In this document: positions 1,547 to 61,730 of the stretch, piece by piece
Layout: each line of letters begins with the position of its first letter
Numbering within the stretch: the first letter of the stretch is position 1
Assembly: GCA_020633975.1 (NCBI GenBank)
Contig: JACKCR010000006.1
Coordinates: forward strand, 267,873-331,872
Origin: Candidatus Eiseniibacteriota bacterium
GTDB taxonomy: Bacteria > Eisenbacteria > RBG-16-71-46 > CAIMUX01
DNA length: 64,000 nt
Direction of reading: 5' to 3'
The notes under the pieces: model-generated
Told to the model about the DNA's origin: nothing
Databases searched by the model: none
The model's input: only the letters and a program-made list of their open reading frames with translations
Position numbers and translations under genes: made by a program

Positions 1547-3418
1547 TTAGTCCTGCGTGGCCGTAGTTGGAGCTGAGTCAGACGACGCTGGGAGCTCGAC
1601 GCCCCACCAACCTCGTCTGAGTTCGACCACGGTCGATCCGTAGACGGTCGCGAGCGAGTCGAGCCGCGCTTGTCCCTTTCGCTTCGAGATGAGATAGGCC
1701 GGGTGCGGCGAGGACTGGAGCCATGCGCCGACTTCCGACACGTGTACGACGCGGCCCGCTGCGAACGGCTCGTCGTTGCTCTCTGAGACGCGGTCCAGGT
1801 TCGAGATCCCTCCTTGCTCTCTGAGGGCGAACATCACGTAGTTGCTCGTCATCTCGCGGCCGTCACGGGAGAAGAGCGTGACCGGCTCACGCAGATAGAA
1901 CGGGAGTCCGGGAGGGAAGCACTCGAGACAAGCGACGCGTGTGTCGTCGCTGAGCTCCGGCATCTGCCGGACGAGCGAGAAGGTGGAGCCGACGGTCGCG
2001 GCTTCCTTCAGCCCAGGCCATCCGGCGATCACGGCGAGAACAGGGAGGAGCGTGAAGACGCCGAAGAGGATCGCTGGCCGACGAACGCGGAGTGCGAATG
2101 CGGTGACGAGCGTGGCCGTTAGAAAGACGACCGAGACTGGAAGGAAGATCGGCTGAAGCCTGTGGAACTCCGATCCGTGGATCCGGAACGCGCTCCGCAT
2201 CGCTTCGGGCGCGAGTGCGTTCGCGAGGAGGAAACTCCCTCCGATCAGTGTGAGAAAGCTGAGGACCAGGGTGCCGCGGCGCACGAGACGTGCAGCCGCA
2301 CCTGACGGGTTCTGGATCGCGGCCACGAACACCCGTGCCGCCAAGGGAGCGAGCGCGACGACGCCCGGGAGGATGTATCCCGGGAGCTTGGAGCGGGAGG
2401 TCGAGAAGAAGACTACGACGACGAGTGCCCAGATGGCGAAGAGGAGGTCGCTCTCCTTCAGACGACGCCGAAGCTGCCATGCGCGGAACACACCCTCCGG
2501 GAGGAGCGCACTCCACGGGAAGAAGACGCCGAGCAAGACGGGGCCGTAGTACCAGAAGGGCGCCGTCCGGTGGAATGCCGTGGTGGAGTAGCGCCGGAAC
2601 GTCTCCTCGATGAGTCCGTATTGCGGGAAGTCTGGGCGGGCCAGACTGAGTCCGATGAACCAGGGCAGCGTCACCGCGAAGAAGACGAGCACGCCGAGAG
2701 GGGAGAACGCCGAGGGACGTCGGGGTCGCCCGAGCAACTTCGGAGTCAGCCAGCCGTGGACTCCGAGGACGAGGCCGGGCAGCAGGAAACCGACCGGTCC
2801 CTTGATGATCGTCGCGATGCCTGCAGCCGCGGCCCCCAGGACGCTGAAGATACTGCGTGCGCGTCCGTGACTCCGCTCCGCCTCGAAGCCGAGGAGGATC
2901 GCCGTGGCGACGAAGAGTGAGAGCGGGAGGTCGAAGATCACGATCCGGGCAAAGGCGAGGAGGAGCGGAGTCGAAGCGAGGACGAAGACGGCGAGCGCTG
3001 CCACGAGCGCAGAGTAGTGACGCCGGCAGAACTGGTAGATGAGGCCACAGAGAAGCAGAGCGGCGAGTGCGGTGGGAACTCGGGCAGCCGCCTCCGACAC
3101 GCCGAACGCGGAATACGAAAGCGCGACGGCGTGGAAGTAGGCGATCGGCTTGTCGAGATAGGCGAGCCCGTTGAACGTCGGGACCCACCCCAACGGAACC
3201 CCGAGCAGCTCGCGGGCGACTTCGGCGTTCCGGCCTTCGTCCGGGTCGACCAAGGGCCAGGCACCGAGACCGCTCAGGAAGACGAAGGCGGCATAGAGGA
3301 AGGCGGCAATGCCGAGCGGAGCCGCCTTGTCATTCCCACGCTCGGTCTCGCGCAATCCCGTCTCCCCGTTCCCGATCCCCTGCTCGACGGCCGGGGGCTG
3401 GACCCTGCCAGTCGGCAC
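1547..3418 (-). CDS. GT-C family glycosyltransferase, ArnT/PMT-like (GT83/GT39-type), 623 aa
   Basis: ORF-track protein with more than 10 predicted TM helices; first loop has the ArnT-like motif LVDPDEGRNAEVARELL; C-terminal soluble domain. Same strand as and immediately upstream of asnB. Confidence 0.8.
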   Translation of the reverse strand: MPTGRVQPPAVEQGIGNGETGLRETERGNDKAAPLGIAAFLYAAFVFLSGLGAWPLVDPDEGRNAEVARELLGVPLGWVPTFNGLAYLDKPIAYFHAVALSYSAFGVSEAAARVPTALAALLLCGLIYQFCRRHYSALVAALAVFVLASTPLLLAFARIVIFDLPLSLFVATAILLGFEAERSHGRARSIFSVLGAAAAGIATIIKGPVGFLLPGLVLGVHGWLTPKLLGRPRRPSAFSPLGVLVFFAVTLPWFIGLSLARPDFPQYGLIEETFRRYSTTAFHRTAPFWYYGPVLLGVFFPWSALLPEGVFRAWQLRRRLKESDLLFAIWALVVVVFFSTSRSKLPGYILPGVVALAPLAARVFVAAIQNPSGAAARLVRRGTLVLSFLTLIGGSFLLANALAPEAMRSAFRIHGSEFHRLQPIFLPVSVVFLTATLVTAFALRVRRPAILFGVFTLLPVLAVIAGWPGLKEAATVGSTFSLVRQMPELSDDTRVACLECFPPGLPFYLREPVTLFSRDGREMTSNYVMFALREQGGISNLDRVSESNDEPFAAGRVVHVSEVGAWLQSSPHPAYLISKRKGQARLDSLATVYGSTVVELRRGWWGVELPASSDSAPTTATQD

Positions 3419-3502
3419 CGGCCGCTCACGTTAGCAGCGCGCGAGAGGAAAGTCAGCCGCCCAGCGCGGCCGGCTCGGCTGAGGTCCCGGCCGGTCGGAT
3501 TC

Positions 3503-4642
3503 CTACTTGCTGGATGTCGATGGGGCCGAACTCGGGGGACCTGATCCCGGCAGCCAGCCGAGCGCTTCCACCTTGGCTGCGATCGTGTCTGCGACCAGGC
3601 GGTGCCCACGTGGGTTCCAGTGGGAGTCGTAGGTGAAGCCGAGGGCAGAGTCGGGGTGGAGTCGCTCGTACTCCTCGAAGGCTGGGGCGAGATCCAGTTG
3701 GCTCCCGACGCCAGGCGGGGGGACGTTGGCCAGGAACGCCGTGTCGGAGAGGCCAGGTAGGACCACGAGCAGGAACCGAACGCCACGTGCCTCGCACTTG
3801 GACGCCATGGTGTCGATCAGGTCCGCCGTCAGCCGCTCCGATTCGCTCGGGCCGGACTCGCCGGAAGCCGCCGCCGGATCTTCTCCGTGAGACTCGGCCC
3901 GGAGTCCGGCCAGGCGGAAGGCGAGGACATCGTAGAGGACGAACCGTCGCTGGATCTCGCGACGGATCCGCATGGAGAGGGGAACGGACGGCTCGACCGC
4001 GGCCCGGAGTTTCAGCTCGCCATTGGCCTCTCGCGTGAAGTACGGCTTCTGGTAGATCCCCCACGCGGTCGGCTGGCCGTTGTCGAGGATGTCGTTCCGG
4101 TAGAGGCAGAGAAGGACGACGTCCGGTTCGCTCGGGAGGACCACGTCGTCCAGGAGCAGGAGCTCCTGATCGGTCGAGTAGCCGATGACGCCGAAGTTGC
4201 CAACGGCGGCGAACGGCCACTTCTCACGCAGAAGTGCGCTGAAAGTCTCGTTCTCTTCCACACCGTGGCCGAAGACGTAGGAGTCCCCCAGGACCGCGAC
4301 GGAGAAGACGGAGTCGGGCGGTGCGAACACCGGCCCGCGAAAGCCGCGTTCGTTGATCTCGACGTGGGTGTCGAAGTCTCTCCGGCGGAATCTCGTATCC
4401 GCGCCCGGCCGGTTGGCCCAACCGTAGCGGGCGTCGAACTGGACGAAGAGGTCCTCCGGCCGCTGTTGCCGCTCCGCCACGTACGCGAGGTCCGGGAACT
4501 TCTTCCGCGCGTACCATTCGCCTGCGAACACGACGGCGATCAGTACGAGCACCAGTAGGAGCAGCTGTCCCAGGATCAGCTTCAGAATCCGTGCCAAGCG
4601 AGCGATGTCTCCCCGTTCCTTCGTTTCCGCATCTGGTGCCAT
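3503..4642 (-). CDS. SGNH/GDSL-family hydrolase with N-terminal membrane anchor
   Basis: N-terminal TM (LILGQLLLLVLVLIAVVFAG), GDS block LGDSYVFGHG, C-terminal DSHWNPRGH (DxxH block V). Third gene of the minus-strand envelope operon. Confidence 0.7.
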   Translation of the reverse strand: MAPDAETKERGDIARLARILKLILGQLLLLVLVLIAVVFAGEWYARKKFPDLAYVAERQQRPEDLFVQFDARYGWANRPGADTRFRRRDFDTHVEINERGFRGPVFAPPDSVFSVAVLGDSYVFGHGVEENETFSALLREKWPFAAVGNFGVIGYSTDQELLLLDDVVLPSEPDVVLLCLYRNDILDNGQPTAWGIYQKPYFTREANGELKLRAAVEPSVPLSMRIRREIQRRFVLYDVLAFRLAGLRAESHGEDPAAASGESGPSESERLTADLIDTMASKCEARGVRFLLVVLPGLSDTAFLANVPPPGVGSQLDLAPAFEEYERLHPDSALGFTYDSHWNPRGHRLVADTIAAKVEALGWLPGSGPPSSAPSTSSK

Positions 4643-5214: not shown

Positions 5215-8200
5215 ATGAGACATACTTTGGTAGTCGCTTCTGTAGTAGGTGCTATCTGCTGGGGCTCGACTTCCCTCGCAGCCACCTACACCGTGGATCC
5301 CATGGGCACCTATCCGACGATCCAGTCGGCTGTGGATGCCGCCAGCACCGGGGACGACGTAGTCGTTCCGGCGGGCACGTTTGTCGAACAGGTCGTCGTG
5401 GACGGTAAGAACTTGACGATCACGGGAGCTGGAGTCGGTGTGTCGACTCTCCAGTCCCCGGTGTCACTCACCGAGTCCTTCGAGACGCCGGGACCGAACC
5501 CGAACTATCCGATTCTCTACGTCCACGACACGGATGATGTCGTCATCCAGGGTTTCACGATCGACGGAGCCGGAAACGGGAACGGAAACTACCGTTTCGT
5601 TGGTGTTGGTTTCTACCGGGCGGGCGGCGCCGTTCTCGACTGTTACATCACGGGAATCCAAGAGACCCCGTTCACGGGAAACCAGCATGGAAATGGCATA
5701 TATACATGGAATCCAAGTGGCAACACGCTCTCGATCGAAGTCGGTAATGTCGAAGTCGATACGTTCCAGAAGAACGGAATCACGATCAACGGGCCCGACA
5801 TCAACGCGAACGTCCATGACTGCACGGCCAACGGCGTAGGTCCGACCTCGATCACGGCCCAGAACGGCATCCAGATCGGGGAAGGTGTCACGGCTACGGT
5901 CAACGACTGCGCCATCAACGGGATCACCTACACCGGAGGCACCTGGACTGCGACCGGATTCCTCGCGTTTGGTCCGACCGACGCTACGGGCATCGCGCTC
6001 GACGCCTGCCAGACGAGCGTCTACTACATCGATGCGGGCGGGACGTTCGAGAACTCCACGATCACGAATCCGGTTGGTGATGGGTTCTACGCGTACTCGT
6101 CTTCGTCTGCGCTCCTTGCCTCTTCGAACACAAGGCCTCAGGCACAGCCGATGGACGACCAGTCCAGCGACCCCACGCCGGAAACCGCGGTCATGGACGT
6201 CACCGTTCGGGGATGCACCGCGACCGGGACCGGGCTAACCGATAGCTGGGGAATCAGCGCCTATGGCGACGGTGGAACCATCACGTTCAATGTCGAGAAC
6301 TGCTTCATCAACAACTGGGACTACGGAGTCGTCACCTACGACTTCAGCACCACGTCGATCGATGCGCACATCTTCGAGAACGACCTCTCGGGGAACACGT
6401 TCTCGGTTGGTACGAACCTGGCCACGATCCAGGACGCGTCGGGGAACTGGCACGGCTCTGCGGACGCGGGGACCGTAGGTGCCGGGGTCGATCTGAACGT
6501 CGACTACAGCCCGTGGCTCGAGAGTGGAATCGACCAGGATCTGGGGACTGCTGGCTTCCAGGGTGATTTCTCGGTGCTGAGTGTCGATGACGACAGCCCC
6601 GAGTCCGATCCGGCCGGCCGGATTTCCCAGGCCGTCGCGCTCGTCAGCGGCAGCACGGTCAACATCGCGCCCGGGACCTACGAAGAACAGGTCCACATCA
6701 CCACCCCCGACCTGGTGCTTCAAGGCTCGGGTGTGGATGTGAGCGTGATCCAGTCCCCCGTGGCCCTGACGGACTTCTTTAGTTCGGGGGGCGCGGACTT
6801 CAGGCCGATCGTCTTCGTCGACGGTGTCCCTGGTGTTTCGATCTCGGATCTCACAGTCGACGGCCTCGGGCGCGGAAACGCGAACAACCGGTTCTCCGGA
6901 GTCGGCTTCTGGAACTGCGGTGGAGCGCTCGAGGACTGCAGGTTCACGAACGTCCAGGATACTCCGTTCTCGGGCGTCCAGCATGGATACGGTGTCGTGG
7001 CCCGCAACGGCGACGGGGGGCCGCACACGCTTTCCATCACGAACTGCACCGCGGACGGGTTCCAGAAGAATGGTTTCGACCTCCGGGGCGCGGGTCTCGA
7101 CTTCTCGCTCGTCGGCTGCAGCGCCACGGGTGCCGGTCCTACGGCAACGATTGCGCAGAACGGCTATGTCGTCGGCTTCGGGGGCGCGGGCAGCGTCATG
7201 AACTGCGATGCCGCTGCGATCGAGTACACCCCGAGCGGAACCGTCTCGACCGGAGTCCTGCCGTTCGACGCGGGCGGCGACGTCGACATCAACGGCTGGA
7301 CGACGACCGACGTTCAGGCCTCGGTCTATTACTACAATGCTGGCGGTTCGGTGTCGAACTTCGCCATCTCCGGGGGCAGCTACGACGGGATCAACTTCTG
7401 GAACGAGACCACGTCGGCGCCGTTCACTGATCGCGCACGTGCTTCCGTGGATACAGAGGGATACGTCGGTGGAAGCCCGCTAGCGGGACCGCTCGTAGCG
7501 TCGGTCTCGGGCGGATGCCTAACCGGTACGGGAGCGGCCGGATTCTACGGGATCTGGGCCAACTCCACCGGCGGTCAGTCGCTGAACGTCAGTGTCGCCA
7601 ACACGAGCGTGACGAACTTCGACTACGGACTCGTCGCCGAAGGAACGGCCACACTCACAGCGAACGACTGCTCGATCACTGGTAACCTCACCGCGGGCTA
7701 CCTCAACGTGAATGGAGTCGCCCAGGACGCGACCGACAACTGGTGGGGAGACGTCTCCGGACCGAGTGGTGACGGGGCGGGCTCCGGTGACGCGGTCTCG
7801 GGAGGGGGAGTCGACTTCACCCCGTTCCTCGCGACCGGCATCTCCTCGACGTCCTGCACCTTCACTCCGAGCGGCGGCACGAACGAGGTGACGCCGGTCA
7901 ACACATCCGGGGACTGCATCAACGCGTCGTCCCCGTGCCTGACTGTGGACGTGAACATCAACCGGGTCGAGTCGTCGAACATGCGCGGATTCAGCGTCGA
8001 CATCCAACTCATGGATCTCGACCTGTGTTCTACACCCGGTGCCTCGATCCTCCAGGGCACCTACCTCAGCAGTGGTACGACCGGCAGCACGATCTACCAG
8101 GTGCTCGACAATGGCGGCGGTTCCTACACCGTCGACTGCGCGATCCTGGGCACGCCGTGCGGCCAGACCGCGGCCACCGGCACGCTCTTCACGGTTGACG

Positions 8201-22768: not shown

Positions 22769-22912
22769 GACCGATCCCTCCTCGAGAGTTGAGGACGAGC
22801 ACGCAGTCGGTAGCATCTTCCAACCTAGCACCGCGGTTCGTGTCTGCCTACGACGAGGAGATGCTCAGGTTACGCTCTTCTCGAATGTCCAGCTTCCGCG
22901 AAACTACTCGTT

Positions 22913-23944
22913 GTGGCAGGGGCCCACCTTCGCGAAGATCGACGGCCGGACAAGGGGGAATCCGTGTTGAGCCTCAATCGCACGTATGTGAAGGCGGCAG
23001 CCAAGGCGAGCCTCACTGGGCTCGGGGCGACCCAATGGCTCCGTCCGCGGGTTCGATGGGCGTTCCTGTTCGGGTGGGCCGTCTGGGGCCTCCTGATCGG
23101 CTTGTTCGGCGGGGCGATCGGTCTCGAGCCGAAGACCGCCCTCTTCATGGTGGCGAACCTCCTCGTTCTGTTCGTGCTCTACGACTTCGTCGTCAGCTAT
23201 CTGCTCCTCGAGCGACGGGACCGCGAAGGAGAGCTGGCCGTTGCGTCTCGCATCCAGGAAGGACTCTTCCCGACGTCGGTGCCGAGGGGCGAGAGGTATG
23301 CGTGTGCCGGGCTCACTCGCCCCGCGCGTGTGATCGGAGGCGACTACTGGGACGTCACCCTCGACGGAAGCGGTCGTCCCCTCCTCCTCGTGATCGACGT
23401 TGCGGGGAAGGGAGTGCCCGCCGCGCTCCTCATGGCCGGGCTCCGCTCGCAGTTCCACCTTCTCGCGCGGCAAAGGCTGGAGCCGGCGCAGATCGTCGGT
23501 GAACTCAACCGCGTGCTCGTGGCCGACAGCGGCCCTGGTGACTTCGCGACTTTGCTCCTCGTCTCCGTCGATACGGACGCCCGGAGCCTCGTCGCGGTCA
23601 ATGCGGGCCATCCTGCCGGACTTCTCGTCCGCCCGGACGGTTCCTATGAGGAACTCACGTCCTCGGGCCTCCCGGTAGGAATGCTCGACGGCGCGCCGTA
23701 CGAGGCTCGAGTCGTGCCCTGGAACGCCGGGGATCGACTCGTCCTCTACAGCGATGGCCTGCAGGATGTCGCGATGGACCAGGAGAGCGACGGGCTGTCG
23801 ACCGATGCGATCGCGCGATGCGTACACGACGCACGGAGTTCCGATCCGTCGCTGGTTCTCGAGGAGTTGATGAGTCTCGCGACGGACAACGCGCGTGACA
23901 TGGTCGAGGATGACGTGACCGTGCTGGTGTGTGCGTTCAAGTGA
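22913..23944 (+). CDS. PP2C-family Ser/Thr phosphatase (SpoIIE-like) with N-terminal membrane segments
   Basis: TM helices (WAFLFGWAVWGLLIGLFGGAIG; LFMVANLLVLFVLYDFVVSYLLL). PP2C motifs GDYWDV, DVAGKGVPAALLMAG, LVLYSDGL. Start is GTG 22913 (alternative 22966). Confidence 0.7.
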   Translation: MAGAHLREDRRPDKGESVLSLNRTYVKAAAKASLTGLGATQWLRPRVRWAFLFGWAVWGLLIGLFGGAIGLEPKTALFMVANLLVLFVLYDFVVSYLLLERRDREGELAVASRIQEGLFPTSVPRGERYACAGLTRPARVIGGDYWDVTLDGSGRPLLLVIDVAGKGVPAALLMAGLRSQFHLLARQRLEPAQIVGELNRVLVADSGPGDFATLLLVSVDTDARSLVAVNAGHPAGLLVRPDGSYEELTSSGLPVGMLDGAPYEARVVPWNAGDRLVLYSDGLQDVAMDQESDGLSTDAIARCVHDARSSDPSLVLEELMSLATDNARDMVEDDVTVLVCAFK

Positions 23945-24798: not shown

Positions 24799-25884
24799 GT
24801 GGTGGCGCTCTCGACATGTGGGTTGTTTCACGGGTTCTACCAAGACGACTTCCGATGGCTCGAGGCAGCAGAGGTATGGAAACAGCACCCTGCCATGCTC
24901 TTCGACGCAAGTCTCCCTGGCTTCAGGAGACCGCTCGGTCAGCTTGTGTTCTTCGTTCAGTACTTGGTCTTCGGGCTGACGCCCTGGCCATACAACATGG
25001 TGAGCGCCGTCGTTCATCTTGTAGTGGCAGATCAAGTCAGGCGACTCGGACGTTCCTGGGCGGCCGGAATTGCCTTCGGCCTCGGGTCGGGCCACTACTC
25101 CAAGCCCGTTGCCTGGGCCTGCAGTCAGCCGATTCTGTGGGGGACGCTCCTGGCCCTACTCAGTTGGCGCAAGATCGCTGGCAAGCAAGCACTGCTTTGG
25201 GCCGGTCTGGCGGCCGCAGTCCCGTGGATCCACGACTTGTTCGGGTTGTTCGGGTTCGCTTTCCTGTTCCGAACCGGAGTGCCCGGGAGGGCGCGAGTGA
25301 TTCCAGCGGTGAGCTCGATTGCTTTCCTCGTGACCACGATGTCCGCGCGTAGTGAGTTGGACGGACAAGCAGGCGTCGGCCTTCACAGTGTCCTGACTCC
25401 GCTTCAAGGCTTGGGGGCGCTGCTGTTTCCGATCACCAGTGTAGGGCAGCTCCGTTCCGTCGGTCTGCCTGGCTCGCTGATTGTTGCCGGGATAGTCGTC
25501 TCCGTTGCGATCGTCGTCGCCTTGATCATCAGATCCGCAATGTCGAGTGTCCGCTCCAGAGATCAACTTCTCGTGGCCGCCTTGGTGCTTGCGCCTACCG
25601 CCGCGGCGAGCTTCTCGGCCGGATGGGTCGAGCCCAGATACTTGTATCCGATGGCTGCCTTTGCGCTGCCTGGGATCGCGCTAGCGGTGCCGCACGTCGC
25701 TGAGTGGCAGCGCTTGTTTGGAGCCGCTCCCGCCCGTCGTGCTGTCGCACTCGTCCTGATCTGCTCATGGGTCATCGGGTCACTCTACATGTACGGTCAA
25801 GCAAGAGAGTTCTCACGCACCACGCAACGGTGGCAGCCACTATTGGAACGAATTCAGGAACTCAGAGAGCCCGAGAAGCCTTGA
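24799..25884 (+). CDS. Polytopic membrane protein, putative GT-C-type glycosyltransferase (ArnT/PMT-like first-loop motif YQDDFRWLEAAE); as assembled it can only start at GTG 24799
   Basis: About 10 TM helices. With one fewer C in the tract, ATG 24753 reads MASPAPPPPGWAILLVVALSTCGLFHGFYQDDF..., which supplies the TM1 that should precede the DD motif. Confidence 0.6.
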   Translation: MVALSTCGLFHGFYQDDFRWLEAAEVWKQHPAMLFDASLPGFRRPLGQLVFFVQYLVFGLTPWPYNMVSAVVHLVVADQVRRLGRSWAAGIAFGLGSGHYSKPVAWACSQPILWGTLLALLSWRKIAGKQALLWAGLAAAVPWIHDLFGLFGFAFLFRTGVPGRARVIPAVSSIAFLVTTMSARSELDGQAGVGLHSVLTPLQGLGALLFPITSVGQLRSVGLPGSLIVAGIVVSVAIVVALIIRSAMSSVRSRDQLLVAALVLAPTAAASFSAGWVEPRYLYPMAAFALPGIALAVPHVAEWQRLFGAAPARRAVALVLICSWVIGSLYMYGQAREFSRTTQRWQPLLERIQELREPEKP

Positions 25885-26083
25885 TCGACGAGGTCTCCTG
25901 GACGCTTCCGCCTTACAATCCAGTGCAGCCGTTACAAGGTTCGAGCGGACTCCGCGTGGCCCCACGAAGCGCCGCTCGACACCATTGGACCTCGGTCCAA
26001 TTCCTGACGGAAACTCCAAGTATCATCTTTCCAGTGGCTTACCAGGCCCGCGTTCGCCCTCGTGATGCCGTCCCGCTGCCTCG

Positions 26084-26099
26084 TGGCACGCGCCTTGCG
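26084..26099 (+). promoter_or_regulatory. Sigma-54 (RpoN) -24/-12 promoter TGGCACG-CGCC-TTGCG
   Basis: Exact consensus TGGCACG-N4-TTGC with GG and GC 12 nt apart; about 50 nt upstream of ATG 26150 (RBS GGAGG 26141-26145). Confidence 0.65.
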
Positions 26100-26149
26100 T
26101 TTCCTCCTTTCGGAACTGAATCGCTCATCACCGCTTTCCAGGAGGAAAC

Positions 26150-26554
26150 ATGTCTCGCACTCGACGTCTCTCTGTCCCTGTGGCCCTCTCGTACTTGACC
26201 TTCGCGTCTGCCATCGCTACCGCGGCTCCGGCCGACATGCCAAACCCGACGCACGTCGTCAATGCAGCGAGCGTTCAGAACGCGATCAACGCCCAGGTCG
26301 CCGCCGAGGACGCGCAGCGGGAGCGGCTCCAGAAGATCCTCGCGGCTCCGCAGGTGGAACGGGTGGCCGAGCGCGCCGGGATCGACATGGAGACCGCGCG
26401 GGAACGTGTCGCGACGCTCTCCGGTGAAGAGCTTCAGCAGGTGACCCACCAGTCGGCGGGGCTCGATGCCGAACTCGCGGGTGGCGACACCATCGTCATC
26501 TCCGCCACCGCCGTCATCATCGTTCTTCTCCTCCTCATCCTTCTGACGGACTGA
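26150..26554 (+). CDS. Small exported protein (134 aa): Sec signal peptide, helical domain, then AELAGG followed by a C-terminal 20-aa hydrophobic anchor (DTIVISATAVIIVLLLLILLTD)
   Basis: ATG 26150 with GGAGG RBS. Signal peptide MSRTRRLSVPVALSYLTFASAIATA. Gly-Gly immediately precedes the C-terminal TM; no basic tail. Confidence 0.6.
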   Translation: MSRTRRLSVPVALSYLTFASAIATAAPADMPNPTHVVNAASVQNAINAQVAAEDAQRERLQKILAAPQVERVAERAGIDMETARERVATLSGEELQQVTHQSAGLDAELAGGDTIVISATAVIIVLLLLILLTD

Positions 26555-26559
26555 TCGGA

Positions 26560-28701
26560 GTGAGGACTCTGACGCCGGTCACCTGGCTCCGCTGCCTGCT
26601 GGTCCTGGCGTTCATCACGACTGCAGTCAGTAGCGCGTCGGCTGAAGACCGCGAGGCGAACATCTCGTCTCGCGGTTTCGTCGTTCCCTACGTCGCGCAG
26701 AGCGCGAGGCTGTGCGGAGGCGCGTGCCTTGCGATGGTGATGCGGTATTGGGGAGAGACTGGCGTCACTGCCGAAACCTTCGATGCCGCATTGGACGCGG
26801 GGGAGAAGGGGATGACGGCGAGGTCTCTCACGTTGGCAGCCCGGGCGCAGGGTTTCGACGCGTGGCCGTGGTACGCGACTTCGGACCAGATCCAGCACCA
26901 CCTCTCGCTCGGTCGCCCCGTGATCCTTCTCATCGATGCGGGCGCGTCCACGCTCCACTACGTCGTCGTGACGAGCTGGAACTCGAGTGCTGTGACCTTT
27001 CACGATCCCGCCGTCGGGCCCGCGCGGGCACGCCCGACCCAAGACTTCGTAGACGCGTGGGAGGCGAGCCAGTGTTGGGCCGTTCTCCTCCTGCCGTCGG
27101 GCTCGCCGGATGAGCCGTCATCGTGTGAGTTCTCCACCGACATCCCGCCTTCGGAGCAACTCTCCACCGATGAACGCTCTACTCGCGGACTCTCCACCGA
27201 CGAACTCTCCACCCAGGCGCATTCATCGGACGACTCCTCCATCGATGCGTCGTGTGCCGACCTCGTACGCCGTGCCGTCAGCCTAGCCGGTGCAGGGCAG
27301 CGCGACGAGGCGCGCGAACTTCTCGAGCTGGCTCACGGACGATGCCCGGACGAAGTGGCTCCTCTAAGGGAACTGGCGGGCCTTGCATTCCTCGAGAACG
27401 ATTGGACGGAAGCAGCGACCTTCGCTCGAGACGCGCTCCATCGCGATCCGGGCGACAGTCTCTGCCTCCGGCTCCTCGGCGGAAGTCGGTATCTCGCTCG
27501 CGACGTGGACGGGGCGCTCGCGGCATGGAACCGACTCGGGGAGCCGCGATTGGACCTCGTGCAGGTCGAAGGAAGTCACGATGTCCGATACCGACCGATT
27601 GCGGATCGGGTCGGACTGGATCATGGACACGTCATGTCGAGTCGCTCCTTCCAGCTTGCTCGTCGTCGCGTAGGAGAGATCCCCGCGCTCGGCCGTTCCC
27701 GTGTCTCACTCCGTCCGTTCGACGGCGGTATGGCGCAGGTCGACGTGGTCGTGGCGGAGAAACCGGTGATTCCTCTGCGCACCGTGGACCTCCTTCGTGT
27801 GGGGACGAGGGCCGCGCTTCGCCACGAAGTGGCCGTGCCGATCGCGAGTCCGACAGGGAACGGCGAACTCTGGACCGCACGTGGCCGGTGGACCGAGGAG
27901 CGACCGCTCGTAGAGCTGACACTTGTGATGCCGTCGCCTCGTTGGACCGGCGTGTGGCGGGTCGAAGGGTTGTGGGAACGCCAAGCCTACGCGTCAGACG
28001 ATCTCCTCGGAGGCTCGGATGCCATCATTCGGGAAACGCGGCGCCGCACCGCACTCTCCTACTCCGACTGGATCTCGCCGAACCTACGCGCGTCGCTCGG
28101 TGCGGCGGTCGAACGATGGGATGGCGGAGAACGTCGCGTCGGAGTCGAGCCAGAGTTCTTGGTTCGCGCCGCCCAGGACCGTCTCGCCGTCACCGCGGGT
28201 GGGGCGCTCTACCTACCACGCACAGGTGGCGACGATGGTGCCGTGCGAGTCGGGAGACTCCTCGTCGAATGGCGAAGCGGGGCCCGCGGAACGTGGTCGT
28301 CTCGCGCTGGGATCGAAGCAGTGTCGGCAAACGCTCCACACGCACTCTGGCCGGGCGCAGGAGTGGGACGATCGAGAGCAGGGCTCCTCCGTGCGCACCC
28401 GCTCCTCCGTGACGACGTCGTCACTGGCCCGGTGTTCGGCACGACGGTATGGAACTCCGGGGTCGAGCGACGCGTGGCTGGTTGGAACGGCGGTCTCCTC
28501 TCGACGGAAGTCGCGCTGTTTCTCGATGCGGCCGGCGCTGTGGGCGAAGAGACCGCCGACGATGCGCGTTGGCAGACCGATGCCGGAGTCGAACTGCGAG
28601 TTGGTGACCTCGGTGGGTCAGAGCCGGTGCGCCTGGACCTCGCACGTGGACTGAGGGACGGGCGCTGGGCCGTGTCGCTGTCGTGGGTGGCCGCCGACTA
28701 G
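26560..28701 (+). CDS. Secreted fusion protein: peptidase C39-like domain + TPR repeats + POTRA-like + putative Omp85/TpsB-like beta-barrel (713 aa)
   Basis: GTG 26560, 5 nt after the upstream stop. Signal peptide MRTLTPVTWLRCLLVLAFITTAVSSASA. C39-like core FVVPYVAQSARLCGGACLAMVMRYWGE...HYVVVTSW. TPR-like helices. POTRA-like VQVEGSHDVRYRPIADRVGLDHG...VDVVVAEKP. About 300-aa C-terminal region of alternating beta-strand character ending VRLDLARGLRDGRWAVSLSWVAAD. Confidence 0.6.
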   Translation: MRTLTPVTWLRCLLVLAFITTAVSSASAEDREANISSRGFVVPYVAQSARLCGGACLAMVMRYWGETGVTAETFDAALDAGEKGMTARSLTLAARAQGFDAWPWYATSDQIQHHLSLGRPVILLIDAGASTLHYVVVTSWNSSAVTFHDPAVGPARARPTQDFVDAWEASQCWAVLLLPSGSPDEPSSCEFSTDIPPSEQLSTDERSTRGLSTDELSTQAHSSDDSSIDASCADLVRRAVSLAGAGQRDEARELLELAHGRCPDEVAPLRELAGLAFLENDWTEAATFARDALHRDPGDSLCLRLLGGSRYLARDVDGALAAWNRLGEPRLDLVQVEGSHDVRYRPIADRVGLDHGHVMSSRSFQLARRRVGEIPALGRSRVSLRPFDGGMAQVDVVVAEKPVIPLRTVDLLRVGTRAALRHEVAVPIASPTGNGELWTARGRWTEERPLVELTLVMPSPRWTGVWRVEGLWERQAYASDDLLGGSDAIIRETRRRTALSYSDWISPNLRASLGAAVERWDGGERRVGVEPEFLVRAAQDRLAVTAGGALYLPRTGGDDGAVRVGRLLVEWRSGARGTWSSRAGIEAVSANAPHALWPGAGVGRSRAGLLRAHPLLRDDVVTGPVFGTTVWNSGVERRVAGWNGGLLSTEVALFLDAAGAVGEETADDARWQTDAGVELRVGDLGGSEPVRLDLARGLRDGRWAVSLSWVAAD

Positions 28702-28794
28702 CCCGCCGATTCTAGGCCCCGATCCGGTTCTCGATCCCAGATCAGATAAGTGGTGGAAACGGGCATCGTCGGATGCCGCGCGTTCATCGTCCCG

Positions 28795-29424
28795 TCAGGG
28801 TGCCCAGGCCCAGCCAGTCTTGGACCGGACGAGTTCGGCCGGTATCCGGTCGTACTCACCCGGTCCGCGGTCCGTGGCGAGCACGCGGGTGAGGCTGAGT
28901 GTCGACGGGCCGGCCCAGCGCAGCGAGTCAGGGCCCCAGTCGAGGGGCTCTTCCCGGAAGACGACGCTGAGCGTGTCGGAATCGATGTCGTAGATGGTGA
29001 GCGAGTTCGGAGACATCATCGCTTCGAGATCGAGGGCACCGACGGCGAGATGACGCCCGTCAGGAGAGACGAGCGGCCTGGCGTCGACGTTCCACGACTG
29101 GCCCGTCTTCCGGTGGAGGAGCAGGTACTCGGAGCTCTCGACGTAGCTCACGTGAACGCCGTGGAAGGGCGTGCCGCGGAGGATCCCCTCGTACTCGTAG
29201 ACATGGTACGTCTCGCTGGTCTCGCGCGCGTCGCTCTCGAGCGTGACGATGCCGGCGTCCGTCGCGATGAAGAAGCTGCCCGCGCCCCCCGCAGGGAGTC
29301 CTCGCGTCTCGATCGGGGTGCGGGGTCTCGCTGCTTCCTGCTGGGGCCGTTGGTCGCCGCCGCACCCGAGTGCCAAGACGACGAGTCCGGTGGCGGCGAG
29401 TGCCGTCGACCACTGTCTCTGCAA
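28795..29424 (-). CDS. Lipoprotein of unknown function (209 aa)
   Basis: TTG 29424..29422 with AGGAG 7 nt upstream. Lipobox LVVLALGCGGD. The rest of track ORF 28795..29652 is upstream noise. Confidence 0.5.
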   Translation of the reverse strand: MQRQWSTALAATGLVVLALGCGGDQRPQQEAARPRTPIETRGLPAGGAGSFFIATDAGIVTLESDARETSETYHVYEYEGILRGTPFHGVHVSYVESSEYLLLHRKTGQSWNVDARPLVSPDGRHLAVGALDLEAMMSPNSLTIYDIDSDTLSVVFREEPLDWGPDSLRWAGPSTLSLTRVLATDRGPGEYDRIPAELVRSKTGWAWAP

Positions 29425-31754: not shown

Positions 31755-33280
31755 CCCTTCCCGCTCTCATCGTCACGGGCGCCTCGGGGTTCATTGGTCG
31801 ACACCTCCTCGATCGACTGAAAGAGCGCTACCGGATCTACGGGATTGCGCGGCGCTCGCAGCGCCGAAGCGGCGCCCCCATCCACCCGAACGTCACTTGG
31901 TTCCAGGTCGACATCGCCGACCGGGCGTCCCTCGAGCACGCGTTCCGCAGAATCGGTGAGGAAGGCGGCGCCGATACCGTCGTTCACCTCGCCGCTCACT
32001 ACGACTTCACCGGCATCGAGGTCCCCGAGTACCAGAGAACCAACGTCGATGGACTCCGCAACGTCCTCGAGTGCTCGCGCGAGCTCGGGATCAAACATCT
32101 CATCTTCTCGAGCTCGGTTGCGGCGTGCCAGTTCCCTTCACCGGGGCGGACGGTGGATGAGACGAGCCCGCCCACGGGCGATCACATCTACGCGAAGACG
32201 AAGGCGATCGGCGAGGAGATGGTCAAGGAGTACGAGGCGCACTTCTCCTCGGTGATCGTGAGATTCGCGGCGCTCTTCTCGGACTGGTGCGAGTACCCAC
32301 CGCTCTTCAAGTTCCTCGAGACCTGGCTCTCCTCGAAGTGGAACCAGCGGATTCTCGCGGGGAAGGGGCAGTCGGCCATTCCCTACCTGCACGTGCTCGA
32401 CGGAATCGACTTCCTCCAGAGGCTGCTGAAGCGGCTGGACGAGACGAAGCCGGGGCAGATCGTGGTGTGCAGCGGGGACGGGTCGACGACTCACCTGGAG
32501 CTCTTCGTCGCAGCGACCCACTACCACTTTGGGGAGTACATCAAGGCGATCTTCATGCCCCGTCCGCTCGTCAAGCCCGGTGTTCATGTGCGCTGTCTGA
32601 TCGGACGGATGAGCGGGGAGATGCCGTTCGAGCGGCCCTGGATGGTCGAGTACATCGACGAGCGACTCGACATCGATGCGACCAACACCCGCGAGTGGCT
32701 GGGTTGGGAGCCCAAGGAGCGGCGCGAGATCATCCGGCGCCTTCCGTTCCTCCTCGAGAACCGGAAAGTAGAACCGGTCGAATGGATCCGCCGCAACCAC
32801 GCTGCCATGAAGCAGTATCGGGTGCGTCCCAACCTCCAGATCCACTCGCTACTCGGCGCTCACGCCGAAGAGATCTCCGCCGAGTACACTCGCGCCCTGG
32901 AGGAACGAGCTCACCGTGGGGATTTGCCGAGCTACGGGCACGTCACGCACCGCGAGCACGAGTGGAACCACAAGCTGATCCTGCGCCACCTCATGAACGC
33001 CGTCCTGACTCAGGAGCGCGGAGTTTTCATCTCCTACTGCCGGGACCTGGCGGAGAGGCGGTTCGACCAAGGATACAAAGCACACGAACTCGCGAGCGCG
33101 GTGCAGGAGCTCGGTTGGGTCTGCCTCCGCATCCTGGGCGAAGACGAGGAAGGGAGAGAGCTGGTCGGACTCCTTCACGGCCAGATCATGTCGACCGTGC
33201 TGTTCGGTTGCGACGAAGTCTTCGAGACGTTCGAGACGCTCGAGGCTTCGCGTCCGATCAGTGAGGCGGCTCCGCACTGA
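31751..33280 (+). CDS. NAD-dependent epimerase/dehydratase family (extended SDR) protein with about 170-aa C-terminal helical extension
   Basis: ATGA overlap with the Rieske stop. TGASGFIGRHL Rossmann motif and YAKTK catalytic motif. Confidence 0.8.
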   Translation: MTLPALIVTGASGFIGRHLLDRLKERYRIYGIARRSQRRSGAPIHPNVTWFQVDIADRASLEHAFRRIGEEGGADTVVHLAAHYDFTGIEVPEYQRTNVDGLRNVLECSRELGIKHLIFSSSVAACQFPSPGRTVDETSPPTGDHIYAKTKAIGEEMVKEYEAHFSSVIVRFAALFSDWCEYPPLFKFLETWLSSKWNQRILAGKGQSAIPYLHVLDGIDFLQRLLKRLDETKPGQIVVCSGDGSTTHLELFVAATHYHFGEYIKAIFMPRPLVKPGVHVRCLIGRMSGEMPFERPWMVEYIDERLDIDATNTREWLGWEPKERREIIRRLPFLLENRKVEPVEWIRRNHAAMKQYRVRPNLQIHSLLGAHAEEISAEYTRALEERAHRGDLPSYGHVTHREHEWNHKLILRHLMNAVLTQERGVFISYCRDLAERRFDQGYKAHELASAVQELGWVCLRILGEDEEGRELVGLLHGQIMSTVLFGCDEVFETFETLEASRPISEAAPH

Positions 33281-33678: not shown

Positions 33679-33733
33679 GTCTCTCTCACTTGGGCACGTG
33701 CATTGCTCGACGTGCTCGGCCCTTCCCGCCCGA

Positions 33734-34261
33734 TCACGCTTCGCGCTCCCACCACGGGCTCGGCTCGCGTGCGTCCGTTCTTCGCGCGATGTGGTATCCA
33801 AGCGTCTCGAGCTCATCCACGACATGCTGGATCATGAGCGGAATGGAAGCGCGCACCGGCCCACTGAGGCCGATCGTGGAGTCGGTTCGTTCCGGGATCA
33901 CTCCCACGAGGAGCACGTCGGCTGGCCCTTTGCCGGCGAACTCGAGCGAAAGGAGCGTCTCCTTGACTCCAGGGTCGTGAGGACCGATGCGCGCGCTCGG
34001 TGCGTGAGCAAGGATCTGGTCCTTGCGATAGAGACGGATCTCTCCGGCCGGTCCGTCCGATCGGACCGTGTCGAGGAGGATGATCCTCTCTCGTCCGGCG
34101 ATGTGCGGCAGGATGTCGAGCCCGGGCGTGCCCAAGTCCTCGATTGCGACAGTGTCGGGAAGGTCGAATTGGGAGCAGAGGTACTCGATCGCGTATGGGC
34201 CCGCGGCATCGTCACCCATGAGGACGTTCCCGAGGCCCAAGATCGCGACGTTTCCTTCCAC
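33734..34261 (-). CDS. hybD: [NiFe] hydrogenase maturation endopeptidase (HybD/HyaD family)
   Basis: ILGLGNVLMGDDAAG motif. GTG 34261 lies 11 nt after the large-subunit stop. Confidence 0.8.
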   Translation of the reverse strand: MEGNVAILGLGNVLMGDDAAGPYAIEYLCSQFDLPDTVAIEDLGTPGLDILPHIAGRERIILLDTVRSDGPAGEIRLYRKDQILAHAPSARIGPHDPGVKETLLSLEFAGKGPADVLLVGVIPERTDSTIGLSGPVRASIPLMIQHVVDELETLGYHIARRTDAREPSPWWEREA

Positions 34262-34272
34262 TCCCGTCCGCC

Positions 34273-35970
34273 TCAGAGCGCCTTGACCCGGGCGATCTCG
34301 TTTCCTTCGACGTCGAGCGTGTGGACCGCACAGGCGATACACGGGTCGAAGGAGTGGATCGTCCGAAGCACTTCGAGTGGCCTCTCCGGATCCGCGATCG
34401 GGTTGCCGACGAGGGAAGCCTCGTACGGGCCCGGGCGGTTCTGCTCGTCGCGCGGTCCGGCGTTCCAGGTCGACGGAACCACCGCCTGGTAGTTCGCAAT
34501 CTTCCCGTCCCGGATCACGACGAAGTGAGAGAGCGTTCCGCGCGGCGCTTCGTGGAACCCGAAGCCGACCTGCTCTCCCTGGAAGACCGGCGGTTCGAAG
34601 ATCGCCGTGTCACCCGACGCGATGTTCTCGACGAGGAGCTGCCAGTGCTTCTGGGCCATCTCGCAGATCACCGCCGTCCGGACCGCACGCGCCAGGTGCC
34701 GGCCGAGGGTCGAGTGGAGCATGGCGGGCGTCAGCTTCGTCTTGGCAACGGCACCGGCCGTGTCGAGTGCGAAGTTGAGCCAGCGCTGCGTGGGCTCGTG
34801 ACCGGTCGCGGCACCGACCAGCACCTGGGCCAGCGGACCGACCTGCATCGGCTTGTCGCCGAAGCGCGGGGCCTTGATCCAGGAGTAGGCGCCGTCGTCC
34901 TCGAAGCCAGTGTACTTCGGAACGGTGTCTTCCTCGTAGGGATGACGTGTCCAGTCGCCGTCGTACCAGGCGTGGGCGATCGACTCGGTCACGTTCTCGC
35001 TGAAGTACGGATCCGTGAACGACGTGATCGGCTTCGCGGTCGCGAGATCGCCGTTCATGATCGTCCCGCCGGGGAGGTCGAACTTCGTACCGGCGCTGTC
35101 GAGCGGAAGATCCGGTACTGCGAGGTAGTTCGTCACACCCGAGCCGTAGCCGAGCCAGTCCGCGTAGAGCGCGCCGATGGCGCATACGTCCGGCAGGTAG
35201 ACCTGCTGGATGAACGCGACCATCTCGTCGAGGAGCGACTTGATCGTGTAGAGCTTCGTCATGTTGAGCGTCGACTCGTTGTCGAGGTTGATCGCATTGG
35301 CGACGCCACCCACGGCGAGGTTCTGGATGTTTGGAGTCTTCGATCCCAGGATCGTCACGACCTGGTTGGCTTTCCTCTGATAGTCGAGTGCCTGGAGATA
35401 GTGCGACACCGCGAGTAGGTTCACCTCGGGTGGCAGCTTCATCGCAGGATGGCCCCAATAGCCGTTCGCGAAGGGACCGAGCTGTCCCGCCTCGACGAAA
35501 CCGGCCAGCCTCGCCTTCACCGCCGTCATCTCCTTGACGCTGTTCATCGGCCAATCCGAGAGCGACTGCGCCAGGTTGGCTGTCGCGGCCGGATCGGCCT
35601 GAAGGGCCGAGACCACGTCCACCCAATCGAGGGCGGAGAGGTGGTAGAAGTGCACGATGTGATCGTGCATCGCGTGTGCGGCGAGGATGATGTTCCGGAT
35701 GTACTGGGCGTTGAGCGGAACTTGGATCCCGACCGCGTTCTCCACCGCGCGGACGGAAGCGATCGCGTGCACCGTGGTGCAGACGCCGCAGAACCGCTGC
35801 GTGAAGAGCCACGCTTCGCGCGGATCCCGGCCTTGGAGGATGACTTCGATTCCGCGCCACATCTGTCCGGACGACCACGCCTTCTTTACGCGGCCACCAT
35901 CGACCTCACAATCGATCCGGAGATGCCCTTCGATCCGGGTGACGGGATCGACCACGATTCTCTGACTCAT
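34273..35970 (-). CDS. hybC: [NiFe] hydrogenase large subunit
   Basis: N-terminal RFCGVCTTVHAIA (L1 RxCGxC) and C-terminal DPCIACAVH (L2 DPCxxCxxH); 565 aa. Confidence 0.95.
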   Translation of the reverse strand: MSQRIVVDPVTRIEGHLRIDCEVDGGRVKKAWSSGQMWRGIEVILQGRDPREAWLFTQRFCGVCTTVHAIASVRAVENAVGIQVPLNAQYIRNIILAAHAMHDHIVHFYHLSALDWVDVVSALQADPAATANLAQSLSDWPMNSVKEMTAVKARLAGFVEAGQLGPFANGYWGHPAMKLPPEVNLLAVSHYLQALDYQRKANQVVTILGSKTPNIQNLAVGGVANAINLDNESTLNMTKLYTIKSLLDEMVAFIQQVYLPDVCAIGALYADWLGYGSGVTNYLAVPDLPLDSAGTKFDLPGGTIMNGDLATAKPITSFTDPYFSENVTESIAHAWYDGDWTRHPYEEDTVPKYTGFEDDGAYSWIKAPRFGDKPMQVGPLAQVLVGAATGHEPTQRWLNFALDTAGAVAKTKLTPAMLHSTLGRHLARAVRTAVICEMAQKHWQLLVENIASGDTAIFEPPVFQGEQVGFGFHEAPRGTLSHFVVIRDGKIANYQAVVPSTWNAGPRDEQNRPGPYEASLVGNPIADPERPLEVLRTIHSFDPCIACAVHTLDVEGNEIARVKAL

Positions 35971-59806: not shown

Positions 59807-60808
59807 TTGCGCCGACCGGGAGGTGTGTACAGGATCCGACAGATGGGAGTGGGGACCATGGAATCCAAGATTCGGGACCGTTCCTTTCGTTCTCAGTCGT
59901 TCTCCCTCGGTTCGCTTCCTTTCGTCGCCGACCGTTCCTCGCGACCAGTGGAGCCATCGATCCTGGTGCACACCTCGCTTCTGATGCTCACCGGTGTCTT
60001 GCTGGTTCTCATCGCCTCTGCACCCGCTCGGTCTGCCTCCCCACCTGCGACCGGCGCTTGCTGCCTTCCAGGCGACACCTGCCTCCTCTTGGGAGACTTC
60101 GAGTGCGACGCTCAGGGAGGTGAGTTTGCCGGAGAGGGGACGACCTGCGATCCGACACCCTGCTTCGGAGCGTGCTGTGTCCCCACCGGCGGATGTGAGA
60201 TGTACTCCGAGTTGGAGTGCTTCTCTCAGGAAGGCGAGTTCTCCGGGTACTTGGAGGATTGCGTTCCGGAGCTTTGCCCCGAGGGTGGCCTGTGCTGCGT
60301 CCCAGAGGGGTGCTGGTGGCTCACCTACGATGCGTGCCGAGACGTGGACGGCGAGCCCTTGGGAGTAGAGGGTGCTTGTCAGTGGTGCCGGGGCGCCTGT
60401 TGTCTCGCTGACGGCACGTGTCTCGAGCTCTTCGAGGCGGATTGTGACGCGGCTGGCGGTGCGTTCGAGGGCATCCTCACCGACTGCGGACCGGAGTCTT
60501 GTGCGTCGGCAGACGTGCATGAACCCTCCGCGCGCGTCGCCCCGACACTCTCTATCTTCCCCAACCCGGCCAGCTCGGAAGTGACCTTCATGATCTCGTC
60601 TCAGAGTTCGCGGCGGGGACGGTTGCGGCTCGTCGACACCTCTGGGCGGATCGCCTGGTCGTGCACGGTTGACGCTGGACCGGGGGTACAGGAGATCACG
60701 ACTCCCGTCGGGAACGATTCGGGTTCGCCTGTGCCGGCCGGTGTCTACTACGTGCTCGTCTCGCTCGGGGATGCCCAGGTCGCCGGGCGATTCGTCGTCA
60801 GCCGCTGA
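59807..60808 (+). CDS. Secreted Cys-rich repeat protein (same GACC...C...GG..G....C repeat family as 19583..22768) with Por/T9SS-type CTD
   Basis: Five Cys-rich repeats (GACCLPGDTCLLLGDFECDAQGGEFAGEGTTCDPTPC...). C-terminus TLSIFPNPASSEVTFMI...LVDTSGRIAWSCTV...AGVYYVLVSLGDAQVAGRFVVSR. Start likely ATG 59858 or a later codon. Confidence 0.65.
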   Translation: MRRPGGVYRIRQMGVGTMESKIRDRSFRSQSFSLGSLPFVADRSSRPVEPSILVHTSLLMLTGVLLVLIASAPARSASPPATGACCLPGDTCLLLGDFECDAQGGEFAGEGTTCDPTPCFGACCVPTGGCEMYSELECFSQEGEFSGYLEDCVPELCPEGGLCCVPEGCWWLTYDACRDVDGEPLGVEGACQWCRGACCLADGTCLELFEADCDAAGGAFEGILTDCGPESCASADVHEPSARVAPTLSIFPNPASSEVTFMISSQSSRRGRLRLVDTSGRIAWSCTVDAGPGVQEITTPVGNDSGSPVPAGVYYVLVSLGDAQVAGRFVVSR

Positions 60809-61504: not shown

Positions 61505-61730
61505 GGGGATCTCCTTTCCTCGAGGTTGATGGAGCAATTCGCGTGCCGGCTCCAGGAGGGGAGAGTGAGACATGGATGACCCAAGGCGCCGGATCCTCTG
61601 GCGAAGAGGCGCCTAACGATGGGTCAGTGTTGTCCCATCGTTAGGCGCTAGGTGCGTTTCTGGAGCGCGGTCGTGTGGTCAATGAAGAGCCAATGCGGAT
61701 GGCGACTCGGTCCAGGACTCGGTCTACGAG

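Follow-up and report, generated by a model that had tools for sequence, protein, structure and literature searches.

A putative sigma-54-dependent operon joining a PA2779-family protein to a C39-TPR-POTRA-Omp85 protein, a probable protease-substrate pair of the periplasm

The present analysis concerns a two-gene operon at positions 26084 to 28701 of a stretch of Candidatus Eiseniibacteriota DNA (contig JACKCR010000006.1), the whole 64 kb of which is referred to as the window. The operon consists of a small gene, specifying a 134 amino acid (aa) protein that carries a Gly-Gly motif directly before a hydrophobic C-terminal tail, and a big gene, specifying a 713-aa protein in which a C39 cysteine-peptidase domain is joined to TPR, POTRA and Omp85-type barrel domains. 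The evidence gathered from this locus and its relatives points to the small protein as the likely substrate of the peptidase encoded beside it. The features of the operon, given by window position, strand and description, are as follows.

26084-26099, plus strand: sigma-54 type promoter, TGGCACGcgccTTGCg, with -24 element TGGCACG, 4 nucleotides (nt) and -12 element TTGCG, as read in the sequence
26140-26146, plus strand: Shine-Dalgarno sequence AGGAGGA, 3 nt 5' of the ATG at 26150, also kept in the closest relative (L001)
26150-26554, plus strand: small gene, 134-aa PA2779-family protein (NF033919 match), stop codon at 26552-26554
26150-26224, plus strand: putative Sec-type signal peptide of the small protein, aa about 1-25, MSRTRRLSVPVALSYLTFASAIATA, with basic n-region, hydrophobic core and Ala-x-Ala sites
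26264-26476, plus strand: predicted periplasmic four-helix domain, aa 39-109 (AlphaFold2; predicted local distance difference test, pLDDT, about 88-91 over aa 40-100)
26480-26485, plus strand: Gly111-Gly112 (ggt ggc), candidate C39 cleavage site, from its conservation and its loss alongside the partner C39 domain
26486-26551, plus strand: C-terminal tail DTIVISATAVIIVLLLLILLTD, a short polar/beta-branched stretch followed by transmembrane helix 119-133, no basic tail
26560-28701, plus strand: big gene, 713 aa, GTG start at 26560, 5 nt after the small-gene stop
26560-26643, plus strand: putative signal peptide of the big protein, aa 1-28, ...AVSSASA/EDRE, from the sequence and aligned N-termini
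26674-27102, plus strand: C39 cysteine-peptidase domain, aa 39-181, with Gln47, Cys52 (26713-26715), His133 (26956-26958) and Asp149 (27004-27006)
27103-27243, plus strand: disordered Ser/Thr/Asp-rich linker, aa 182-228 (pLDDT below 50), variable in length and sequence among homologues
27244-27537, plus strand: TPR domain, aa 229-326 (Pfam TPR families), six helices with pLDDT above 90, conserved Cys232 and Cys262
27547-27759, plus strand: single POTRA-like domain, aa 330-400, beta-alpha-alpha-beta-beta in the model
27760-28698, plus strand: Omp85-type barrel, aa 401-713, about 16 strands, with invariant L-R-A-H-P-L-L (aa 610-616) and F654-x-D656

The original prediction for this DNA placed a consensus sigma-54 promoter ahead of the small gene and a 713-aa open reading frame (ORF) five nucleotides behind it, and both are present, the latter with its GTG at 26560. 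The promoter has the -24 GG and the -12 GC in correct spacing and lies 51 nt upstream of the ATG of a gene, and the exact pattern TGGCAC-N5-TTGC occurs once in the 64 kb window, at the operon itself, where chance would give 0.05 occurrences. Its core forms a conserved island in the comparison with L001, while the pattern GGCAY-N5-[AT]TGC is found upstream on the coding strand at 28 of 68 related loci, as against 3 of 68 in the opposite-strand control and a background of 0.019 per 420 nt. The proposed sigma-54 control of the operon is supported because the -24/-12 element is conserved across phyla. A scan of positions 25800-29000 returned neither a sigma-70-like promoter nor an intrinsic terminator.

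The small ORF starts with MSRTRRLSVPVALSYLTFASAIATAAP and ends as had been predicted, in ...AGLDAELAGG followed by a hydrophobic C-terminus that has no basic tail. Its product reaches 47.1 bits on the NCBIfam profile NF033919 (PA2779 family), for which the cut-off is 40, with aa 18-131 aligning to positions 12-108 of the 123 of the profile, and matches DUF6627 of Pfam weakly; a protein from a Candidatus Eisenbacteria genome that is 99% identical to it (P0121) bears the NCBI name 'PA2779 family protein'. It has the build of that family (about 125 aa, a signal peptide, an A-G-G-D-T-I-type motif and a C-terminal hydrophobic helix) as well as its context, in that the small gene adjoins a C39/TPR peptidase gene. 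The signal peptides of both operon products were assigned by eye from the sequence, without a predictor, and the layout of this region is alike in the homologues of the small protein. All structural statements made here are predictions. In the AlphaFold2 model of the small protein, the signal-peptide helix is followed by helices 39-64, 67-76, 80-89 and 92-109, a loop of residues 110-118 and a terminal helix 119-133, such that Gly111-Gly112 falls within the loop between helix 92-109 and the transmembrane helix. A fold search of the PDB with the four-helix domain gave no match (best E value 3.6). The tail is the best conserved segment of the family. In L001 the small gene (5616-5988) is split by a frameshift, probably an assembly error, and is called by NCBI as a 73-aa hypothetical protein.

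The domain composition that had been proposed for the big protein (C39, TPR, POTRA and Omp85-type barrel) holds by profile search, AlphaFold2 model and alignment, and the string FVVPYVAQSARLCGGACLAMVMRYWGE, quoted in the original prediction, was found in the big ORF. The catalytic Cys and His and the barrel, on which that prediction had staked itself, are both there (Cys52 and His133; about 16 strands in the model). Pfam Peptidase_C39 (PF03412) matches aa 48-167 with 50.3 bits, the gathering score being 22, and is matched by all 36 big-protein homologues aligned, in which Gln47, Cys52, His133 and Asp149 are invariant; PCAT1 has its catalytic residues at the aligned positions of the Cys, His and Asp, and the nearest relatives of solved structure in the PDB (ComA, PCAT1 and LahT150) are all double-glycine peptidases. 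ABC (ATP-binding cassette) exporter domains, the classic context of a C39 peptidase, are absent from the protein. Pfam TPR families match aa 235-306, and consensus-TPR structures were among the PDB matches. The POTRA domain is matched by Pfam in only one of the 36 homologues, and weakly, and PF01103 does not match the big protein, five of the 36 homologues doing so with a best E value of 2.3e-5. In the AlphaFold2 model (pLDDT 79.8), the TPR domain packs straight onto the POTRA domain with no spacer and the barrel strands span aa 423-709; the POTRA and barrel regions jointly aligned to TamA and BamA, and a C-terminal 16-strand barrel preceded by at least one POTRA domain is the arrangement of the Omp85 superfamily. 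Omp85 proteins carry two motifs, (V/I)RG(Y/F) in the tip of loop 6 and, on the wall of the barrel, (F/G)xDxG. The invariant L-R-A-H-P-L-L, located in a long loop, and the invariant F654-x-D656, on a late strand, resemble these motifs without being identical to them. Signature motifs of Omp85 proteins are on record (PMC4490367).

A chance pair of ORFs is excluded, since more than 436 clusters of full-length homologues of the big protein (37-69% identity) were found in the protein search and the small-protein family comprises 2468 representative clusters (50% identity, E value up to 0.001). The pair is widespread in soil bacteria: 250 relatives of the big protein were found in GTDB species genomes, most of them from Eisenbacteria, Krumholzibacteriota, Latescibacterota, Acidobacteriota (Vicinamibacteria) and Gemmatimonadales. 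The linkage of the two genes, which the original prediction expected to recur in other genomes, was assessed in two samples. Eighty genome loci were chosen via the big protein, and at all 77 evaluable C39-bearing loci a small ORF on the same strand, with G-[GAS] and a hydrophobic tail, lies within 400 nt of the big gene; at two of the remaining three the big gene is at a contig edge, and the third (L073) has a frameshift, probably an assembly error. For the second sample, metagenome contigs were scanned with the tail pattern of the small protein irrespective of the partner, and 62 of the 63 small genes with at least 350 nt of downstream sequence have a C39 domain within 400 nt. The usual arrangement is a single small gene upstream, with a downstream position at a few loci. 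A natural fusion of small and big protein at L073 (5503-8055) was considered and rejected, as it is this frameshift that brings the small gene into one frame with the big gene. When the flanks of the 80 loci were clustered, there were no conserved neighbours beyond the small gene and a sigma-54 activator (12 loci).

With one small gene per peptidase gene, and the operon's own small protein as the only ORF in 64 kb to end in Gly-Gly and a hydrophobic tail, each protease would have one substrate, i.e. the two form a dedicated pair and not a genome-wide sorting system. The original prediction had likened the locus to the exosortase and rhombosortase systems, and in this respect it did not hold, one adjacent candidate substrate per protease being found instead. 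It had also counted a lack of Gly-Gly tails elsewhere in the genome as evidence against itself, which for a dedicated one-substrate pair is therefore not a valid test. In the Krumholzibacteriota genome MFD05684.bin.3.341, three copies of the big gene are present (L009, L045 and L064), with small partners beside L009 and L064 and with L045 cut at the contig edge, which suggests that each protease has its own substrate.

The Gly-Gly itself occurs in all 71 partners from the genome loci, in 118 of 121 profile hits and in all 78 complete small ORFs from metagenomes, at a distance of 20-26 residues from the C-terminus, or of 33 residues in nine longer-tailed proteins of the Pfam DUF6627 type. When 312 distinct sequences were aligned on this motif, 80% had Leu at -4, position -3 was Ala or Val, and hydrophobic residues or Ala recurred at -4, -8, -11, -15 and -18, as in an amphipathic helix with a 4-3-4-3 repeat; the tail then starts D/A, S/T, T, V/I, V/I, I, S, T, T before passing into an Ile/Leu-rich helix. 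As read from this alignment, the candidate site follows the logic of double-glycine leaders, namely an amphipathic helix, a hydrophobic residue at -4 and Gly-Gly.

Six partners were found to be without a C39 domain (L086-L090 and L172), their signal peptide leading directly into TPR, POTRA and barrel. Five small proteins that have lost Gly-Gly (P0223, P0239, P0365, P0266 and P0337) each stand beside one of these, and at the sixth, L172, the small protein keeps S-G-G in a degraded context with Gln at -4. Conversely, no C39-bearing partner stands beside a small protein without G-[GAS] in either sample (77 and 62 loci). About three separate losses of Gly-Gly are suggested, because in a nearest-neighbour comparison P0266 and P0337 are nearer to Gly-Gly-bearing proteins than to the other proteins that lack the motif. 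The C39-less TPR-POTRA-Omp85 proteins of these six loci, all on metagenome contigs, measure 479-569 aa where complete, and a lipobox is present in that of L087; upstream of each stands a PA2779-like small protein in which Gly-Gly is lost or degraded.

The original prediction regarded the system as undescribed, a view that has to be given up to the extent that its parts are already named: the small protein belongs to NF033919 (PA2779) and the peptidase domain is related to NF033920 (PA2778). The locus is classed as a barrel-fused form of the PA2779/PA2778 pair. The big protein scores 58.8 bits in full and 62.3 bits with its N-terminal half on NF033920, an equivalog profile with a cut-off of 150, and the match is limited to positions 5-151 of 255, the peptidase part; in place of a protein of about 300 aa with C39 and TPR and nothing further, which is the PA2778-type build, it has 713 aa with POTRA and barrel. 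A classic PA2778-type locus is L085 (1745-3772), where two tandem DUF6627 genes, one with A-G-G-D and the other with A-G-A-D, precede a 303-aa C39-TPR protein (2861-3772) with 350.6 bits on NF033920 and a lipobox, LLTSC, located 5' of the start as called; as a lipoprotein it would therefore also be membrane-tethered and periplasmic. C39 enzymes accept Gly-Ala, and also Gly-Ser, besides Gly-Gly. Three architectures can accordingly be told apart by sequence, i.e. a C39-TPR lipoprotein, C39-TPR-POTRA-barrel, and TPR-POTRA-barrel with a small protein mostly without Gly-Gly; the tailed small protein and the TPR are constant in all three. Literature searches for PA2779, PA2778, DUF6627, C39 with Omp85 or POTRA, and periplasmic C39 with Gly-Gly yielded no functional account: PA2779 is mentioned as hypothetical, and the promoter of a P. 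stutzeri PA2779 homologue was among the candidate strong constitutive promoters screened.

Based on these findings, we propose that the operon, under sigma-54, would encode a dedicated protease-substrate pair operating in the periplasm. The product of the first gene, a PA2779-family protein, would be exported by Sec and, in a topology inferred from the sequence, stay anchored in the inner membrane through the hydrophobic helix at its C-terminus, with the four-helix domain of about 70 aa facing the periplasm. The product of the second gene would be seated in the outer membrane by its 16-strand Omp85 barrel, with POTRA, TPR and C39 in the periplasm. POTRA domains of Omp85 proteins such as BamA and TamA are periplasmic, and since both operon products are predicted to be Sec-exported, they would therefore share this compartment. 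The C39 domain would hang on a flexible linker of 47 residues by which it may reach the substrate, the small protein may be bound by the TPR domain, by the C39 groove or by both, and the amphipathic helix with Leu at -4 would act as a double-glycine leader, such that cleavage after Gly111-Gly112 would free the helical domain from its 22-residue anchor. We consider it probable that the adjacent C39 domain cleaves the small protein at Gly-Gly, because the synteny of the two genes is near-strict, the motif is conserved, both proteins have Sec signal peptides and Gly-Gly co-varies with C39.

Several observations weigh against this proposal. The cut site is 2-4 residues from the predicted membrane surface while the protease is tethered to the opposite membrane. 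The canonical hydrophobic register of double-glycine leaders is -4, -7, -12, -15, from which the register seen here (-4, -8, -11, -15) departs. The co-variation amounts to six loci, perhaps three lineages, and one Gly-Gly small gene (L103, 480-986) is flanked by no peptidase gene for about 400 nt to each side, being the lone orphan among the 63 metagenome genes. The tail after Gly-Gly is conserved beyond the need of a throw-away anchor. The C39-less variants retain the small partner; cleavage would therefore not be the whole function, and the small protein would be more than a substrate. Judging from these variants, the small protein apparently also works with the TPR-POTRA-barrel protein uncut, cleavage being a step added to a more basic partnership.

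As regards the fate of a released helical domain, the proposal may be extended to a new, protease-gated Omp85 export route, in which TPR and POTRA would pass the clipped domain to the fused barrel to be surfaced or released. We regard this as speculative and rather unlikely; if it were true, two genes and Sec would form a self-contained secretion system unlike type V and two-partner secretion (TPS), and the C39-less forms would be its uncleaved, trans-envelope versions. The same C39-less forms, each with a tailed small gene directly upstream, also bring to mind a stable bridge or regulator, whereby the small protein would stay in the inner membrane bound to TPR/POTRA, Gly-Gly would be a hinge and the C39 domain would act on something else. 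The strong conservation of the tail, together with the TPR as the sole partner domain common to the three architectures, would fit such an arrangement. However, a hinge has no need of Leu at -4 after an amphipathic helix and would not be expected to disappear exactly alongside C39, there is no barrel in the classic form for a bridge to reach, and flank clustering brought up no alternative conserved candidate for the C39 substrate, so that a bridge appears improbable to us.

Two further explanations place the product or the enzyme elsewhere. The layout of the big protein is that of PlpD (an enzyme, one POTRA domain and a 16-strand Omp85 barrel), and its disordered linker of 47 aa could extend through the lumen of a barrel; C39, alone or together with TPR, might be threaded through its own barrel as in a type Vd autotransporter, be displayed on the cell surface or set free, and act outside the cell, the small protein being an accessory. 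We regard this as improbable in view of the packing of TPR onto POTRA, which leaves no spacer, the classic PA2778 homologue, which is a lipoprotein without a barrel, and the co-variation of C39 with the Gly-Gly of a small protein whose predicted place is the periplasm, on an inner-membrane anchor. To our knowledge, every characterised C39 system has its functional product C-terminal to Gly-Gly, as is the case for all of the PDB relatives, and a bacteriocin-like maturation, in which the 22-residue hydrophobic peptide would be the product and the helical domain an oversized leader or chaperone, would also account for the tail as the most conserved segment. Yet this tail forms a transmembrane helix made up almost entirely of Ile, Leu and Val between acidic ends and is kept, uncleaved, in the C39-less variants, the supposed leader has a Sec signal peptide of its own and a confidently folded 70-aa domain, and no ABC exporter or immunity gene is found nearby; we hold this explanation to be very improbable.

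Beyond the operon itself, the original prediction drew attention to a sigma-54 activator in the same window:

14966-17881, minus strand: sigma-54 activator with TPR, AAA+ and HTH_8 domains, a possible regulator (Sigma54_activat, 231 bits), 8 kb from the pair

This gene is real, but nothing ties it to the promoter of the operon. It is not conserved beside the pair elsewhere, and its candidacy as the cognate regulator is unsupported, as only its AAA+ core matches the activators near other pairs, its sensor region being TPR instead of XylR_N/V4R. An activator of the XylR_N and V4R type lies within 6 kb of the pair at 12-16 related loci of Eisenbacteria and Krumholzibacteria, often convergent directly after the big gene (e.g. 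L081, 4679-6349). Sites resembling sigma-54 promoters with one mismatch were noted at 61534-61548 (minus strand), 33692-33706 (plus) and 32793-32807 (minus), the first at the 5' end of an ORF without NCBIfam match (60863-61573, minus); with the exact site of the operon these make four where 2.15 are expected, and as a set they are not significant. A SpoIIE/PP2C phosphatase gene (22913-23944, plus) lies within 2-5 kb of the pair, as do such genes in nine loci of Acidobacteriota (L024, L028, L031, L038, L043, L060, L066, L071 and L072), and in another locus of that phylum (L082) the SpoIIE/PP2C domain is fused to a response-regulator receiver; this recurrence could be due to chance or to a regulatory link. 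Elsewhere in the window, positions 33734-35970 (minus strand) hold the large subunit of a [NiFe] hydrogenase, whose 827 bits on NF007778 fall short of the equivalog cut-off, and a maturation protease of the HyaD/HybD type (TIGR00072, 118 bits), positions 59807-60808 (plus) a Cys-rich 333-aa protein with a C-terminal type IX secretion (T9SS) sorting domain (TIGR04183, 22.6 bits against a cut-off of 23), and positions 18462-22831 (minus) a 1082-aa ORF without Pfam match overlapping a 640-aa ORF with PD40 and DPPIV_N repeats.

Among known systems, the PA2779/PA2778 pair of Pseudomonas aeruginosa is similar in the build of the small protein (signal peptide, helical domain, A-G-G-D-T-I and hydrophobic helix), in the homologous C39 and then TPR of the partner and in the adjacency of the genes. 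In the classic pair, however, the partner is a lipoprotein of about 300 aa that lacks POTRA and barrel, and the small protein extends further beyond the helix and may occur in tandem copies. The proposal made here would supply a candidate function for PA2779/PA2778/DUF6627, a family found in P. aeruginosa and in 2468 representative clusters with no published role, and the three architectures constitute a natural deletion series from which the contributions of barrel, TPR and protease may be read. With the C39 peptidases of ABC transporters (ComA, PCAT1 and LahT), the locus has in common the homologous fold with catalytic Gln, Cys, His and Asp and a substrate with an amphipathic helix, hydrophobic -4 and Gly-Gly. 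Those enzymes are cytoplasmic, are fused to the ABC transporter and remove an N-terminal leader, whereas the big protein is predicted to be Sec-exported, is fused to TPR, POTRA and Omp85 and faces a candidate site before a C-terminal anchor, in another register. C39 double-glycine processing would thus be extended to the periplasm instead of the cytoplasm, to a C-terminal anchor instead of an N-terminal leader and to a barrel instead of an ABC exporter.

Release from envelope retention by one specific cut of a periplasmic cysteine protease is known from the LapG/LapD/LapA system of Pseudomonas fluorescens, where it frees the retained protein from its retention module. The proposed logic is alike, while LapG is of another peptidase family and has no sequence relationship to the present enzyme, its site is a di-alanine near the N-terminus of a giant adhesin and it is controlled by cyclic di-GMP. 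Sortase/LPXTG, exosortase/PEP-CTERM and rhombosortase/GlyGly-CTERM similarly rely on a motif and a C-terminal transmembrane helix that is removed by a dedicated enzyme; in these systems, a single enzyme, of another family in each case, serves many substrates encoded throughout the genome, and the helix is followed by a basic cluster. Membership of the small protein in GlyGly-CTERM or PEP-CTERM was rejected, as no match to the NCBIfam models of these sorting domains was obtained at E values up to 0.1, the tail ends in T-D and there is a single such tail. TpsB proteins (FhaC and CdiB) have two POTRA domains, an N-terminal plug helix and large clients with a TPS domain, unlike the big protein with its one POTRA domain and a barrel that is equally close to TamA and BamA. 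The type Vd protein PlpD consists of a patatin domain, POTRA and an Omp85 barrel (PMC4104836) and thus shares with the big protein an N-terminal enzyme, a single POTRA domain and a 16-strand Omp85 barrel in one polypeptide. In contrast to PlpD, the enzyme part here is C39 with TPR and not the patatin-like lipase that serves as passenger in type Vd, a dedicated partner gene with a matching motif is present, and export of the enzyme is not indicated. In a 2014 survey of Omp85 architectures the words peptidase, C39 and TPR are absent from the text, and the proteins described here extend the known architectures of this superfamily by two classes, C39-TPR and TPR-only.

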